Assembly (NCBI GenBank): GCA_050124795.1
Contig: JASFEO010000002.1
Span: 26,797 to 90,796, forward strand
DNA length: 64,000 bases
Direction: 5' to 3'
From: Candidatus Pacearchaeota archaeon
Lineage (GTDB): Archaea; Nanobdellota; Nanobdellia; Pacearchaeales; GW2011-AR1
Both the position numbers and the translations under genes were made by a program. The notes beneath the pieces are model-generated. The model was not told where the DNA came from, searched no databases, and was given only the letters and a program-made list of their open reading frames with translations. Positions 9,688 to 53,167 of this stretch are shown here, one piece after another. Position 1 is the first letter of the stretch. Every line of letters starts with the position of its first letter.

Positions 9688-10038
9688 ATGGAATTAATAG
9701 CATTACTCTCAACAGGAAAAGGAACATGGGCGCAAGTTGCAGGACTCATGACTCACGGAGACTGGGAAAAAATAATTCTTCTTGGTAGTGACTTTTCAAA
9801 AGATTTCAAGCATGACAAAGAATTTGAATTTATAAAAATTGACTTGGACAAAAAAATAAAAGAATTAAAACAGGAATTTTCTGAAAAACTAAAAGGAAAA
9901 ATTTCTGGTACAGAAGTCGCCTTAACAATTGCATCTGGCGACGGTAAACAGCACATGGCATTAATTTCTTCATTACTAAATATGCCTGTTGGTGTAAGAT
10001 TTGCAGCTTTAACAAAAGAAGGAATAATTGATTTGTAA
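9688..10038 (+). CDS. hypothetical protein, first of co-oriented operon ending in the DGR RT
   Basis: 116 aa; overlaps next ORF. Confidence 0.35.
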   Translation: MELIALLSTGKGTWAQVAGLMTHGDWEKIILLGSDFSKDFKHDKEFEFIKIDLDKKIKELKQEFSEKLKGKISGTEVALTIASGDGKQHMALISSLLNMPVGVRFAALTKEGIIDL

Positions 10039-10276
10039 AATGACATTTGATAATTGGGATGATGAAGAAATGAAAGACTTGCTTTATGAAGGGTGGCAGG
10101 TAGCGTGTTTTCCAGGAGGGGGTTTTGAATATTTGAATAGCCCTTCAGGGAAAAGATATAATTTTGAAGATATTAATGAACTGCAATCTAAAGTTTTTCG
10201 TCATGAACTTCCTTTGTCTCCTGAAGAATCATCTGCTTTAAAATTATATAATCTTTCTTCAAGAATGTATAGCTAA
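10028..10276 (+). CDS. hypothetical protein
   Basis: 82 aa; 8-nt gap to next ORF. Confidence 0.3.
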   Translation: MICKMTFDNWDDEEMKDLLYEGWQVACFPGGGFEYLNSPSGKRYNFEDINELQSKVFRHELPLSPEESSALKLYNLSSRMYS

Positions 10277-10283
10277 TTTTAAA

Positions 10284-10616
10284 ATGAAAAACATAGAAGA
10301 TTTAACAGAACAAGAAATTCTTGGAGAAATCATGAGTCTTGAAGAACAAGGTTTTCAGTTTTTTGTTGATTCTCATTCTGATAAAGAAACTCCTTTTTAT
10401 GTTCCTGACAGAGTAAAACTTCCAGATGGAAAAATTCTTGAAGAAAAAGAATTGCGTTCTGAATTAAAAAAAGATCCTTACAATAAGAATTTTCAAAATG
10501 GATTATATTTATTTGATTTATGTTTTTCAGAACAATATGGCGATGATAGATTTACTCATTATAGTTTTGATGGAGATGAAGATGTTGAAAATTGCCGTTG
10601 GAAATATGAAAAGTAA
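10284..10616 (+). CDS. hypothetical protein immediately upstream of RT
   Basis: 110 aa; 8-nt gap to RT N-terminal ORF. Confidence 0.35.
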   Translation: MKNIEDLTEQEILGEIMSLEEQGFQFFVDSHSDKETPFYVPDRVKLPDGKILEEKELRSELKKDPYNKNFQNGLYLFDLCFSEQYGDDRFTHYSFDGDEDVENCRWKYEK

Positions 10617-10624
10617 TTTTTAAA

Positions 10625-11892
<1,268 letters not shown>

Positions 11893-16132: not shown

Positions 16133-16360
16133 ATGGAAAATATCAGTCTTAAACTTGAACCGAAATTTTTAATTGCAATAAATAAGGTAATGAAGAAACA
16201 CCACTATATGACCAAGGCGGAGTTCATCAGAGAGGCTCTTAGAGATAAGATAAAAATACTGGAAGAAAAGGAAATCCTAAATGATAAAGAACTAATGTCC
16301 CAGATTAAAGCAAGCGAAAAAAATATTAAGAAGGGAAAATTAAAGGAATTTGAATATTAG
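16133..16360 (+). CDS. ribbon-helix-helix (CopG-like) DNA-binding protein
   Basis: 75 aa; MTKAEFIREALRDKI RHH pattern; directly upstream of DGR target gene. Confidence 0.45.
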   Translation: MENISLKLEPKFLIAINKVMKKHHYMTKAEFIREALRDKIKILEEKEILNDKELMSQIKASEKNIKKGKLKEFEY

Positions 16361-16369
16361 TAAATTATT

Positions 16370-16388
16370 TTCGCGCCAAAGGCGCGAA
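16370..16388 (+). terminator. GC-rich hairpin followed by T-run
   Basis: ttcgcgcc-aaa-ggcgcgaa 8-bp stem then aataaaaacattttt, 10 nt after RHH gene stop. Confidence 0.4.
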
Positions 16389-16465
16389 TAAAAACATTTT
16401 TAATAACTATTTTAAAAAAGTAACAAAACAAAAGATTTAAATAATTTGATTTTTCTGTAAATTTT

Positions 16466-17119
16466 ATGAAAACAAACAAACCTCTTGTTAAGCGAGTTGA
16501 ACTTGTGACAATTGAAGGTCATGATGAAATATCTGATGTCCTATATAGAGAAGAAAATGCAACTTACAGACTATATGACAATTTAACTAAACCAATGACT
16601 TTGCCTGAACTCTCAAAATATTCTGCAAAAGAAAAAGAAAAAGGAAATCCTTATGTTCCTAATTCTGAAGAATTGTGGAGTGTCTTTACTGCAATTGCAA
16701 ATTCAGAAAACCCTGAACTTATTTCAAGAGTTAGAGATGAATTAAGAGGCAAATGGATAAGAACATTAACTGCAATTGACTGGTATTCAAATAGAAATTC
16801 AAGAGTTATTCATAATGTCAAAACTCCAGATGCTTATTTTAAACAAAGAAAAGTACTCGGTGAAGATGGGTTTATCCATCAAGTTAAATCTAAAAAACTT
16901 CTTGAAAATGTTCTTGGAACAAATAATGTGAAGAAGATCAATAGTGTTTCTCAAAAAATAAATCAAACTCCAATGTATCAATGGAGAATAAATTCTAAAC
17001 CTGATAAAAAACTTAGAACAAGTGTGGAGCTCTACGCGGGTTCCGGCAGGTTGTTCCTGGATTGCGGCGGGGATCCCTTGGATGAGTGTCCTGCTTTCCG
17101 GGTATTAAGAGTTGATTAA
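16466..17119 (+). CDS. DGR target protein with C-terminal variable region
   Basis: 217 aa; no signal peptide; last 29 codons form the VR; C-terminus ...LDECPAFRVLRVD resembles the C-type-lectin-fold VR endings of DGR targets. Confidence 0.75.
   Translation: MKTNKPLVKRVELVTIEGHDEISDVLYREENATYRLYDNLTKPMTLPELSKYSAKEKEKGNPYVPNSEELWSVFTAIANSENPELISRVRDELRGKWIRTLTAIDWYSNRNSRVIHNVKTPDAYFKQRKVLGEDGFIHQVKSKKLLENVLGTNNVKKINSVSQKINQTPMYQWRINSKPDKKLRTSVELYAGSGRLFLDCGGDPLDECPAFRVLRVD
17018..17104 (+). repeat. DGR variable repeat (VR)
   Basis: 87 nt, 71/87 identical to TR; all 16 mismatches lie opposite TR adenines. Confidence 0.85.
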
Positions 17120-17431
17120 GTCTGACTGCATTGCTCGCTAGACATTGTTGAACCTAACTCTTTATTTTGTCGCGAAGCGCGAAAAATTTTTAAGAGACGC
17201 TTTCTTAATCTTTTTGCCCAGAAGAGTTTTTTCGTTTGAGAAGCGAGAGAACTTAATGGACTACACGCCGGTTAATCAGCGCATTATTAAGGTTTATTTT
17301 AAGCCATGAAATTCAACAGCGACAATTAGTAGCAATAAAAGTGAAAATCTGAAGTTGTGGTGCTTCCCTTGAAATCTCTTCATGGATTTCATTTGCCAGA
17401 AGATCTCTTTTAGAGAAGATTAATTGGCTAT

Positions 17432-17518
17432 AAAAGTGTGGAGCTCAACGCGAATTCCGACAGGTTGAACCTGAATTGCAACAGGAATCCCTTGAATGAG
17501 TATCCTGCTTTCCGAATA
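17432..17518 (+). repeat. DGR template repeat (TR), noncoding
   Basis: 87 nt with 28 A; in VR frame reads AAC/AAT at the diversified codons; lies in an intergenic region 327 nt after VR and 73 nt before the FKBP gene. Confidence 0.85.
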
Positions 17519-17591
17519 GTTTACTGGGCATTTTTTAATCTGCGCAGCATATTATCGAAGGATTTTTAAGCATAATTTTTCTAAAAATTCT

Positions 17592-50241: not shown

Positions 50242-50493
50242 TTAACTAACCTTCATCCCAACCTTGACATCTTTCTCAGGCGAGATAACAGAATCATTAA
50301 CCAATGGAACAACCAAATTATTTTCCTTAATCCCGACAATTATTTTCTTCCCCTTTTTCACATTAATTTTTTGTTTCAATTCCAGAACTTTTTCACCAAC
50401 ATCAACTTTAATATTTTCTTCATCTATTTCAACAACTTCTCCGACTATTAAATCAACTTTCATCCAATCTTCAAAATTAATTTCTGGTTTCAT
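50242..50493 (-). CDS. stand-alone tRNA-binding domain protein (Trbp111/CsaA-like)
   Basis: 83 aa; INFEDWMKVDLIVGEV OB-fold start. Confidence 0.6.
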   Translation of the reverse strand: MKPEINFEDWMKVDLIVGEVVEIDEENIKVDVGEKVLELKQKINVKKGKKIIVGIKENNLVVPLVNDSVISPEKDVKVGMKVS

Positions 50494-51056
50494 TTTTTAT
50501 AAACTGATTTAATGAATGATCTTATTTGTGAAGCGACAATTTCAATAAGCTCGTTTAACTTTAAAACAAACACAGGGTTAATATCAACTTTCTCATTTAA
50601 TAATTTTTCTTTTACAGAAATTCCCCTTGACAAAAGGATTGATTTTATTTTTGAGTTTAGTTCATAATTTAATAAGTTTCTTGAATTTTTGCAAACAATA
50701 ACTCCTAATTGCAACTCAGCATTTTTTAATGAAGATAAAAACAAATCAACATCTGTTGAATCAATTAATTTATATTTAATCTGCAAACCCAATTTAACTT
50801 CTCCTAAAAATCCCACACTAAAATTAAGAAATCCATCAATACCTCTATCTCTGGTTTTTGGAGTTTTAACTAATGCTATATTCATATACTCAAAAAATTC
50901 ATAGATTATTTCTTCAAATGTGAAACCTTTATTTTCCGAGGATTCAATTCTTTTTTTAACTCTTTCAAAAATAAACTCTTTAATTTTTTCTTCTTCAAAA
51001 CAAATGTCTTCATCAAAGGTTATTTCTTCTTCTAAACTTGAAAAAAGATTATTCAT
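50490..51056 (-). CDS. Mrr-like restriction-endonuclease-fold protein
   Basis: 188 aa; TRDRGIDGF...GEVKL...QIKYK PD-(D/E)xK-like. Confidence 0.4.
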   Translation of the reverse strand: MNNLFSSLEEEITFDEDICFEEEKIKEFIFERVKKRIESSENKGFTFEEIIYEFFEYMNIALVKTPKTRDRGIDGFLNFSVGFLGEVKLGLQIKYKLIDSTDVDLFLSSLKNAELQLGVIVCKNSRNLLNYELNSKIKSILLSRGISVKEKLLNEKVDINPVFVLKLNELIEIVASQIRSFIKSVYKK

Positions 51057-51406
51057 TTTACAAAATTAATTTTGCTCCCATTTTCTTTTTTCTCCTTTGG
51101 AGAGATTAAAACACAAACATTCTCTTCTTTACTTCCTGCTGCTAAAAGCATTCCTTCACTTAATATACCCCTCATTTTTCGAGGAGCTAAGTTAGCTAAA
51201 ACAATTATTTTTTTATTTAGAAGTTCATCTTTAGAATAATATTTCTTAATTCCTGCGCAAATTGTTCTCATTTTTTCTTCACCTAAATCAACACTTAATT
51301 TGTAAAGTAAATCAGCTCCTTCTATTTCTGTGGCTTCTTTTATCTCACCAACTCGCAAATCAAGTTTCATCCAGTCTTCAAAATTAATTTTTGCTATTCC
51401 CTCCAT
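51053..51406 (-). CDS. stand-alone tRNA-binding domain protein (Trbp111-like), paralog
   Basis: 117 aa; INFEDWMKLDLRVGEI. Confidence 0.65.
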   Translation of the reverse strand: MEGIAKINFEDWMKLDLRVGEIKEATEIEGADLLYKLSVDLGEEKMRTICAGIKKYYSKDELLNKKIIVLANLAPRKMRGILSEGMLLAAGSKEENVCVLISPKEKKENGSKINFVK

Positions 51407-51452
51407 AATTAATTAAGAATTAGGCGGTTTAAATAATTAATTATTTCAATAT

Positions 51453-51872
51453 TTATAAAATATCCCTTGCTCTTCTTTCTGATTTCCTTAATGCTTTTAT
51501 ATGTTCAGCATTTGTTATTGCTTCTTTACAAGCCCCCCCATAACCTTCTAAAAAATCTTTTTCATTCTTAGGAGATATCCCTTTTGAATCTATGAGGGTA
51601 TAACCCTTTTTACCAGAAACTTTTTGATTATATGTCTCTTCCGCGGATAAAACAATTTCAAGACTTTTAGGGTCAACTAATTTTTCCAACCCCCTTCCAA
51701 ATTCAAGCCCGAGTATAAAAGATCCCAAAGAGCGACCTTCATATTCCATAGTTCCTTCTTTGAGAAGGGGCGATTTACAGCAATAAGTATGCTTTGTTTT
51801 AAAAAATCTCTTAATTCCTCCCGGAACATAAGTTTTCTTAAACAGCAAAACCTGATTATCTTTTAATTCCAT
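51453..51872 (-). CDS. hypothetical protein, paralog A (MELKDNQVLL family)
   Basis: 139 aa; N-terminus and 5' leader about 85% identical to 52715-53167. Confidence 0.4.
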   Translation of the reverse strand: MELKDNQVLLFKKTYVPGGIKRFFKTKHTYCCKSPLLKEGTMEYEGRSLGSFILGLEFGRGLEKLVDPKSLEIVLSAEETYNQKVSGKKGYTLIDSKGISPKNEKDFLEGYGGACKEAITNAEHIKALRKSERRARDIL

Positions 51873-51957
51873 TTTCTATCTTTCTAAAAAGTATCTCGCC
51901 TTTTTTAATATTATTATTCTGTGAAATATATTTTCGAAGTTAATTATCAATTAATCC

Positions 51958-52440
51958 TTAAATTTCTTTTCTATTTTTATAATATGGAGAATCTGAAGGA
52001 AAGGCTTTAATCTTCTTAGTGTCAGGTTTAGTAGCTTTTGATTTGTTAGTAATCACCCCCGTAGGAACAGGAGTTATTTTATTTAATTTTTTTCTTTCAG
52101 GAACTCTTAATCTCATTCTTCGATCTCTTTTCCAAAATCTTTCCTTTAAGTTATTCTCTAAATTTTCTATTTTCTCTTTTTCATTTTTCCCATCTGCATA
52201 GGCAGTTATTTTTTCTCTGTCTCTTGGAAAATTTCCCAATCCCGGATTAAATTCATACAGGACACTGCAATCCAAAAGGTGATAGGTAACACTCCCTCCA
52301 ATATAGCGCAATCTATTTGCTTCATTTTTCCCATTCACATATCCGTCTTTATTAAGTTCATGAAAAACTTCCAAAACTTTCCATGGATACAAAAAATCAT
52401 TATCTGTTAATGAATCCTGCTCGTGAATTATTTTAGGCAT
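51958..52440 (-). CDS. hypothetical protein
   Basis: 160 aa. Confidence 0.35.
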   Translation of the reverse strand: MPKIIHEQDSLTDNDFLYPWKVLEVFHELNKDGYVNGKNEANRLRYIGGSVTYHLLDCSVLYEFNPGLGNFPRDREKITAYADGKNEKEKIENLENNLKERFWKRDRRMRLRVPERKKLNKITPVPTGVITNKSKATKPDTKKIKAFPSDSPYYKNRKEI

Positions 52441-52441
52441 T

Positions 52442-52711
52442 TTATTTTTGCCAAGGCAATTCTCCTTTTAGATAAGCCTCGCGATAATCTTTATGATTTA
52501 ACCTTTGAGGGTTATATTTTTTAATATATTCTTCTGCATCTTTATAATCCTTAGAATAATCTCCAATGAAATTTCCATCTTCATCCCAATCAGTATTATG
52601 AGTAGCAATAATTAATTGTCCATTTTTCATGACAACTCTTTTTATTGCCCTCTCAACCATTGCTTCTCCGCATGAAACAAAATAATTATCACTTGATTCT
52701 TCAATTGTCAT
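52442..52711 (-). CDS. hypothetical protein
   Basis: 89 aa. Confidence 0.35.
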   Translation of the reverse strand: MTIEESSDNYFVSCGEAMVERAIKRVVMKNGQLIIATHNTDWDEDGNFIGDYSKDYKDAEEYIKKYNPQRLNHKDYREAYLKGELPWQK

Positions 52712-52714
52712 TTT

Positions 52715-53167
52715 CTATTTTTTTCTTTTAAAATTTTGAAATTGTTGATCATAAAATGCTTCATAACCTCTTAAAAAATTTCTTTGCTCTCTAAATGAAA
52801 TTCCACTTGAAATTATATGGCGAAATTCTTTTTTATCATTCGAAAGAAGACTTCCATTATATTCAATATCTCCTGACAAAACAATTTCAAGATCTCTCGG
52901 TTCAATTAATTCAATCTTCTCGTCTTTTAATTTTCCTCCAAACATTTCCCCAAGATAAAAAAGATCATTTAATGGATGACGAGTAGAGATCATGCCTGAT
53001 AAAGGAGACTTGCAAAAATAAAAAGGAGAATCTTTTCTTGGAAGCATTCTCTTAAAAAAATTCCGATAAATTAATATATTTTTTATCAACAAAACCTGAT
53101 TATCTTTTAATTCCATTTTATATTTTCTTAAAAAGGATTTCACCTTTTTTAATTTTATTGTGTTCAA
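52715..53167 (-). CDS. hypothetical protein, paralog A' (MELKDNQVLL family)
   Basis: 150 aa; start region overlaps metG 3' end by 50 nt. Confidence 0.4.
   Translation of the reverse strand: MNTIKLKKVKSFLRKYKMELKDNQVLLIKNILIYRNFFKRMLPRKDSPFYFCKSPLSGMISTRHPLNDLFYLGEMFGGKLKDEKIELIEPRDLEIVLSGDIEYNGSLLSNDKKEFRHIISSGISFREQRNFLRGYEAFYDQQFQNFKRKK

Follow-up and report, generated by a model that had tools for sequence, protein, structure and literature searches.

The 64-kb window analysed here, a stretch of a metagenome-assembled genome of Candidatus Pacearchaeota, a tiny DPANN archaeon, carries a template repeat (TR) and a variable repeat (VR) that differ exclusively at adenines of the TR. In diversity-generating retroelements (DGRs), error-prone reverse transcription rewrites the tip of one protein. 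The two repeats are a genuine DGR pair, and their cassette is devoid of a reverse transcriptase (RT) gene. We think it probable that this is a satellite cassette whose VR is written by an RT from another locus of the genome, the structured RNA RT-16 serving as a portable handle. Our analysis establishes the adenine-only pattern, the fusion of RT-16 to the TR, the fold of the target protein and the canonical order of the components in relatives. The satellite interpretation comes from 19 further RT-less relatives carrying RT-16, a TR and a shared spacer, together with VRs that track their own TRs, which we read as cassettes served in trans.

The VR (17018-17104) and the TR (17432-17518) are 87 nt long and align without gaps, with 16 mismatches, at all of which the intergenic copy has A, while the coding copy has G (12 sites), T (three) or C (one). 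A sequence-only reading of this DNA had already described the two copies and their 16 differences, with A always in the intergenic copy, had placed the coding copy at the 3′ end of ORF 16466-17119 and the TR 327 nt downstream of it, and had proposed a DGR; the alignment, the substitution table and the assignment of the VR to codons 185-213 of that ORF bear this out, except that the TR has 27 adenines rather than 28. Substitutions at non-adenine TR positions, which that reading had named as counter-evidence, were looked for and occur at 0 of 60. For 16 mismatches placed at random in 87 positions, the probability that all fall on the 27 A positions is P = 1.1e-10. When the whole window was scanned on both strands and in both orientations for ungapped pairs with A-only mismatches, this pair and one poly-A artefact were recovered, and an A-masked 45-nt pattern matched the VR and TR sites only, even with three mismatches allowed. 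The composition of the repeats is anomalous, the G+C content being 60% in the VR and 45% in the TR against 31% for the window. The TR is intergenic, and the only ORF that could be drawn there mechanically (54 aa) ends upstream of it. Thirteen codons differ between VR and TR, 12 of them non-synonymously, and 15 of the 16 changes affect the first or second position of a codon. The earlier claim that AAC/AAT codons stand exactly at the diversified codons holds for seven of the 13, which are all the AAC/AAT codons of the TR, and fails for the other six (AAA, GAC, AGG, TAT, CGA and ATA). Homology between the repeats stops directly after CCGGGTA in the VR and CCGAATA in the TR, and the same GGGT/GAAT pair is found in relatives. 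In nanoarchaeal DGRs the site of initiation of mutagenic homing (IMH) and its TR counterpart (IMH*) read TGGGGT and TGGAAT (PMC4372165), the same GGGT/GAAT difference as at the ends of the repeats in the window. The DGR interpretation is thus supported by ends of the IMH/IMH* type, by the fusion with RT-16 and by the TR/VR/RT loci of relatives.

The target protein matches no Pfam or NCBIfam family, and a word-indexed search returned one close homologue, whereas an exhaustive phmmer search yielded 212 representatives. In an alignment of 90 family members, the columns templated by AAC/AAT codons of the TR have an entropy of about 3 bits and the scaffold columns interleaved with them are conserved. 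Structure prediction with AlphaFold2 from a two-sequence alignment was unusable (pLDDT 35.8), and the 90-sequence alignment obtained from the representative search was needed. The resulting model has a C-type-lectin (CLec) fold with the nanoarchaeal variable protein AvpA as its closest match, despite a sequence identity of 7%; further matches include about 50 C-type lectin domains and a Treponema variable protein. The guess made from the sequence, that the VR-encoded end resembles those of C-type lectins, was therefore right.

The TR is preceded directly by RT-16, which scores 84.4 bits against a gathering score of 50, matches the model over its full length (1-158) and ends at the TR start. 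The motifs RT-1 to RT-19 have been described only as lying near RT genes, and just RT-10 has been tied to a DGR (PMC5737381). The box ahead of RT-16 (Table 1) may be an archaeal TATA/TFB-recognition element, that is, the promoter of a template RNA starting about 27 nt further on. Several relatives have, at the same place as the G+C hairpin of the window, a hairpin with a GAA three-base loop, and in L003 and L005 a GAA-loop hairpin stands 5-10 nt after the VR; GRA-triloop hairpins are known from nanoarchaeal DGRs (PMC4372165). Across loci, the 5′ edge of RT-16 offers 6-11 nt that can pair with the spacer immediately 3′ of the TR. In the window, TGCCCAG (17215) pairs with CTGGGCA (17524), and this long-range helix would enclose RT-16 and the TR. 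More than 10 different sequences occupy the helix position with complementarity kept (L009, L011, L015, L060, L065, L069, L085 and others). Of the cognate pairs, 33% have an exact helix of at least 7 bp, whereas the figure for non-cognate pairs is 10.6% (p = 9e-4); a comparison of duplex energies between cognate and non-cognate pairs was not significant (p = 0.18). The spacer is presumably kept in RT-less cassettes because the closing helix uses it.

Table 1. Features of the cassette and of the distant RT gene (window positions)
Feature	Position	Strand	Remarks
Truncated DGR-type reverse transcriptase gene (RT′)	10996..11892	+	open frame; homology starts at 11023 (full-length residue ~58)
(TC)13 microsatellite in RT′	11413..11438	+	in frame; loop between RT motifs 3 and 4
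Target gene	16466..17119	+	217 aa; AvpA-like C-type-lectin fold; family with 212 representatives
VR	17018..17104	+	codons 185-213 of target; 3′ end CCGGGTA 17098-17104, IMH-like
G+C hairpin TCGCG-AAG-CGCGA, three-base loop	17170..17182	+	seen in the sequence; position conserved in relatives
A5T5AAG box	17182..17194	+	conserved in relatives; ~25-30 nt before RT-16
Helix 5′ strand TGCCCAG	17215..17221	+	pairs with post-TR spacer; covariation across loci
RT-16 structured RNA (Rfam RF03019)	17218..17436	+	adjoins TR; 44-nt variable insertion
TR	17432..17518	+	non-coding; 27 adenines; 3′ end CCGAATA 17512-17518, IMH*-like
Post-TR spacer GTTTACTGGGCATTTTTTAAT	17519..17539	+	CTGGGCA 17524-17530 (helix 3′ strand); T6 run 17531-17536; conserved in RT-less relatives

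The canonical relatives were studied in a comparison set of 80 related archaeal RT loci from species-representative genomes. In about 45 of the 80, nhmmer placed RT-16 just upstream of the RT, and a strict A-only TR/VR pair was present in 52. In most loci with such a pair the TR starts no more than about 10 nt from the end of RT-16 and ends about 25 nt before the RT start codon. The canonical order in relatives is thus target/VR, hairpin, RT-16, TR and RT, without an accessory gene, which corresponds to Architecture A of PMC5758913, where the absence of an accessory gene is permitted. No Avd-type accessory was found by Pfam among 10 neighbouring ORFs of the window, and the canonical relatives also lack one. 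In L054, L062 and L030, the RT is followed by RT-16 on the opposite strand, an alternative arrangement that rules out co-transcription of the template RNA with the RT.

The single RT gene of the 64-kb window, RT′, lies 5.5 kb upstream of the cassette (Pfam RVT_1, 3e-26). It is 60-72% identical to thousands of archaeal RTs of 330-400 aa, which by their genomic context are DGR RTs, and no protein more than 72% identical to it exists in a collection of 5.8 billion clusters that includes the JGI and Logan samples. Comparisons with group II, retron and DRT families remained below the curated cut-offs, and no NCBIfam or PADLOC family passed its cut-off. RT′ lacks the first ~57 residues, which are conserved in all homologues and which tblastn finds nowhere in the window; there is no ATG, GTG or TTG before 11293 (codon 100), and the frame is closed at 11890 by a TGG>TAG change at a conserved Trp codon, with homology running on past the stop. 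Since the N-terminal residues and the start codon are missing, RT′ is most likely dead. By eye, the sequence with which ORF 10625-11014 ends (LLDETAFERAGSF), upstream of RT′, resembles the VR-encoded PLDECPAFRVLRVD, and this had raised the idea of a decayed TR/RT-16 copy. The idea was rejected, because local alignments of 10600-11060 with RT-16, TR and spacer scored within the shuffle range and hhalign gave a probability of 0.9% for this ORF against the target family.

A striking feature of the cassette, and one that the sequence-only reading had not included in its account, is that no RT adjoins the TR. After the 21-nt conserved spacer, the FKBP gene begins, 73 nt past the TR. The same arrangement is found in 19 further RT-less loci of the TR subfamily of the window, namely L088/L109 and 18 metagenome loci. 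In L088/L109, the locus of the target homologue P0124, target/VR, RT-16 and TR are followed by an RNase H gene on the other strand, and no RT was found from -3 kb to +10 kb; an initial assignment of five tandem paralogous targets to L088 proved wrong. The 18 metagenome loci were obtained by scanning contigs with a degenerate pattern for the subfamily repeat end, and all encode a window-type target or a TR-encoded remnant of the target C-terminus. A tblastn search found no RT in any of them, including contigs that extend 6.2, 5.2, 3.0, 2.7, 1.8 and 1.7 kb past the TR, and in the long RT-less contigs the neighbours beyond the TR are unrelated housekeeping genes. RT-16 exceeds the Rfam threshold in 13 of the 18, with scores of 55-96 bits. 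The RT-less loci have the spacer GTYCATCTGGGCATTTTT in common, the end of which corresponds roughly to the position of the RT start codon in canonical loci. The lack of an RT is therefore, as judged from these loci, the normal architecture of the TR subfamily rather than an isolated loss.

Within the subfamily, TRs differ from each other at 5-24 positions. For five of nine cassettes (window, L100, L107, L104 and L102), the VR fits its own TR at non-A sites with 0-1 mismatches, as against 4-21 with any other TR, while in L093 and L103 the VR ties between its own and near-identical TRs. If, as the shared spacer suggests, the RT-less state is ancestral, the flow of information from TR to VR would have continued without an adjacent RT, that is, with an RT acting in trans. 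Several DPANN genomes hold two RT loci, and nanoarchaeal genomes have been reported to contain four or more DGRs each, plus RT-less 'partial DGRs' (PMC4372165). The TRs of L088/L109 (4106-4192) and L102 (1466-1552) have only 20 adenines and read GCTGGAGCGGGG where the subfamily consensus has ACTGCAACAGGA, a change suggestive of adenine mutagenesis of the template itself; the VR of L102 follows the new TR and that of L088 the old one. Between these two loci, flanks, RT-16 and TR are 0-0.4% divergent, the whole target gene about 10% and the VR 23%.

From this one could envisage the following mechanism. A template RNA consisting of RT-16 and the TR (17218-17539) would be made, probably started from the A5T5 box (17182-17194), and closed by the helix between TGCCCAG (17215) and CTGGGCA (17524), promoter and T-run bounding the RNA. 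By analogy with established DGR biology, as in BPP-1 (PMC5758913), a DGR RT would copy the TR and misincorporate opposite its adenines, and the cDNA would replace the VR (17018-17104) from its IMH end. Rewriting could reach up to 18 of the last 33 target codons, corresponding to the 18 adenine-containing codons of the TR. The RT would be supplied in trans from another locus, with RT-16 as its recognition handle, a step that we infer from the present comparison.

Several observations weigh against a cassette that is served in trans. No intact RT is present in the 64-kb window, the VR is identical in the three assemblies that carry the target gene, although these may come from one sample, and a scan of metagenome contigs with the exact A-masked TR pattern gave 0 matches (a scan of viral contigs with the family pattern likewise gave 0). 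Directly after the VR there is no GRA-triloop hairpin, the nearest hairpin (17170-17182) being 65 nt downstream. Some relatives show signs of decay: the VR of L096 is barely separated (6 vs 7 mismatches, with 6 non-A mismatches to its own TR), and that of L088 fits a foreign TR better and has 9 non-A mismatches. L098 (67-741) lacks RT-16 and has an ORF of the target family whose end is TR-type sequence without mutations (FNANSDWVFLNCNRNPLNEYPAFRI), with the post-TR spacer coming next; recombination between VR and TR seems to have collapsed this cassette. The comparison of L088 with L102 had been considered as proof of homing after RT loss and is ambiguous, as the whole target differs and not the VR alone. 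Finally, the inference of an RT in trans assumes a single origin of the RT-less state, and repeated recent losses would give the same picture.

The strongest competitor, which we nonetheless regard as unlikely, is that the cassette is a fossil, its VR having been written by a cis-encoded RT that has since been lost or broken, with RT′ (10996-11892) as the remnant split off by a rearrangement and no rewriting taking place now. RT′ shares its subclade with the RTs that have the RT-16/TR closest to those of the window, it is truncated and carries a nonsense codon, and the two insertions by which the window differs from the syntenic locus L002 flank one gene block, RT′ being in one and target, RT-16 and TR in the other. 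Some RT-less relatives are visibly decaying, as noted above, and 'fossils' have been offered as one reading of the partial nanoarchaeal DGRs (PMC4372165). Yet the cassette in the window itself shows no decay, with 0 of 60 non-A mismatches and a full-scoring RT-16; the RT-less architecture and the conserved spacer recur in about 20 loci with differing neighbours, the VR tracking its own diverged TR in five of nine; and no similarity to RT-16 or TR was detectable upstream of RT′. That RT′ is instead functional and serves the cassette from 5.5 kb away, being translated from a non-canonical start or through a -1 slip at T TTT TAA (11008-11014) from ORF 10625-11014, is very improbable. Its frame is open over 298 codons in a genome of 31% G+C, the Pfam RVT_1 match is nearly complete (profile positions 8-204 of 205), the YVDD and LGNLTSQ motifs are intact, the microsatellite is in frame, and the stop of the upstream ORF overlaps the start of the RT frame. 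Against this stand the conserved N-terminal segment missing from the whole window, the want of a start codon over the first third of the frame and the stop at the conserved Trp codon. In addition, the upstream ORF has no Pfam or NCBIfam relatives and resembles neither the missing segment nor the target family, and the slippery site is not a canonical heptamer; a -1 frameshift joining the two frames is conceivable on paper, and no support for it was found.

Less credible still is an assembly artefact or strain mixture, in which the real genome would have an intact RT and the observed arrangement would be a chimeric join. The independently assembled JGI contig starts at about 11023, the same point as the RT homology, and the Logan contig starts at 11466, immediately past the microsatellite, so that the join at 11022/11023 rests on one assembly only; either point may reflect strain heterogeneity or a break in the assembly. 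However, the Logan assembly, 100% identical over 15.6 kb, contains the TR-FKBP junction, which is what makes the cassette RT-less, and the JGI assembly shows identical gene spacing there; the lack of an RT is the norm in the subfamily, and the cluster collection, in which those samples are included, holds no relative of RT′ closer than the 72% given above. An explanation without any retroelement, in which the 3′ end of the gene was simply duplicated and the intergenic copy then underwent strand-biased G>A decay, is effectively refuted. Although the coding copy has G and the intergenic copy A at 12 of the 16 sites, and the genome is A+T-rich, there is no C>T change among 19 C positions, the T>A and C>A changes likewise end in A, the changes fall at codon positions 1 and 2 of AAC/AAT codons, and both the fusion with RT-16 and the occurrence of the same architecture beside RT genes in more than 50 loci speak for a retroelement. 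The satellite interpretation is the one that we favour.

The surroundings of the cassette are archaeal housekeeping genes (aIF5A, FKBP, FtsZ, Spt5, L11 and TYW1), those for aIF5A and FKBP bracketing it. Compared with L002, the window has two insertions, one on each side of the TYW1-aIF5A block. The first consists of three small ORFs that could not be annotated and RT′, and the second of a ribbon-helix-helix gene, the target, RT-16 and the TR. The small ORFs (82, 110 and 129 aa, at 10028-11014, between a conserved gene and RT′) are absent from L002 and match no Pfam or NCBIfam family. The ribbon-helix-helix gene (16133-16395, 75 aa, weakly CopG/NikR-like) lies directly 5′ of the target, and a hairpin with an 8-bp G+C stem and an AAA loop is found directly upstream of the target gene within the same insertion. 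Microhomology and target-site duplications were sought at the insertion boundaries, and only 7-8-nt A+T-rich matches or TATCCTGC were seen, none of them significant. In L002 the cassette is located between FtsZ and SecE/Spt5 and in L005 between a DNA-alkylation-repair gene and the gene for L31e. The order of the housekeeping genes is common to related DPANN genomes, whereas the sites of the DGR cassettes differ (window versus L002, L005 and L109), from which we conclude that the cassettes relocate. Further along the window, at 50438-53159, families of direct repeats (81, 56 and 49 nt, 71-85% identity, spaced at 0.9-1.2 kb) suggest tandem paralogous genes.

Among known systems, the nanoarchaeal DGRs (Paul et al. 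2015, PMC4372165), with their variable protein AvpA (PDB 5IOO; Handa et al. 2016, PMC5006420), are in many respects similar to the cassette. They share with it a DPANN host, an A-only TR/VR pair at the 3′ end of an orphan gene, the GGGT/GAAT ends, a G+C hairpin with a three-base loop and the lack of Avd; there, too, several DGRs occur per genome and RT-less 'partial DGRs' have been noted. Those partial DGRs, however, consist of target, VR and cis elements only, whereas the window-type cassette keeps its own TR and RT-16 and forms a conserved family; the hairpin of the window also lies outside the gene, well after the VR, and its target is far from AvpA in sequence. With the DGR of BPP-1 (mtd-avd-TR-brt), it has in common adenine-specific retrohoming from a non-coding TR to a C-terminal VR of CLec fold, the IMH/IMH* asymmetry and a structured RNA attached to the TR. 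In BPP-1, however, avd is present, and RT-10 resides in the 3′ spacer (PMC5737381) rather than 5′ of the TR as does RT-16; the spacer between TR and RT is about 25 nt in our relatives, and the window has no adjacent RT. L003, L005 and about 50 other relatives have the target, TR and RT without accessory gene of Architecture A in the survey of Wu et al. (2018, PMC5758913), according to which TR and RT need not be co-transcribed. That survey was RT-centred, so that cassettes with a TR and without an RT fall outside it. As regards RT-16 itself (RF03019; Weinberg et al. 2017, PMC5737381), the RNA of the window is a member of the family, which was described as occurring 'near RT genes' with no role, whereas here it lies directly 5′ of DGR TRs, also where no RT is nearby.

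The RTs of the relatives have a further peculiarity. At the site of the (TC)13 tract of RT′, 15 related RT loci have (AG)5-15 or, in one case, (TC)8 (the d(GA)n.d(TC)n loci being L002, L003, L009, L020, L031, L069-L071, L073, L074, L076-L079 and L082), and almost no other dinucleotide repeats are found in these loci. Among the 16 tract-bearing RT genes, 10 have their N- and C-terminal halves out of frame with each other, both being long intact frames that overlap exactly at the tract, and the loci with such split RTs retain clean A-only TR/VR pairs. Within protein clusters at 90% identity, alleles with identical N-termini differ in repeat number only; in the P0041 and P0120 clusters there are full-length alleles that differ by one ER unit, while others stop 4-7 residues after the tract. 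To judge from these alleles, the tract looks like a repeat-mediated phase-variation switch on the RT. We found no literature linking DGRs with such repeat tracts. The closest parallel is (AG)12 in a type III methyltransferase of Mycoplasma, a case of simple-sequence-repeat phase variation (PMC3498834), in which there is likewise a dinucleotide tract within an ORF and near-identical alleles are in frame or truncated just after it; the gene concerned here, however, is an archaeal DGR RT, and its variation is seen in allele sequences. Taking these features together, it is conceivable, though we would put the chances at somewhat below even, that RT-less cassettes make up a regular class of DPANN satellites with their own RT-16 and closing-helix template, sharing an RT borrowed from another DGR locus that serves several templates and is switched by a microsatellite, and missed by RT-centred finders.

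DGRs are already known in DPANN archaea, and the repeat pair alone adds one more member. What is new relative to the literature consulted is the variant, a cassette with its own template and RNA scaffold and no polymerase that recurs as a family. If RT-less cassettes are functional, hypervariable genes are under-counted by current surveys, because these start from the RT gene, and the unit of DGR evolution would be the template RNA and not the RT. RT-16, to which no function had earlier been assigned, appears here to supply the DGR template RNA with its 5′ domain, and together with the covarying closing helix it offers a testable model of how an Avd-less archaeal DGR RT recognizes its template. 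The microsatellite in the RT gene, for its part, would turn a targeted mutator on and off stochastically.

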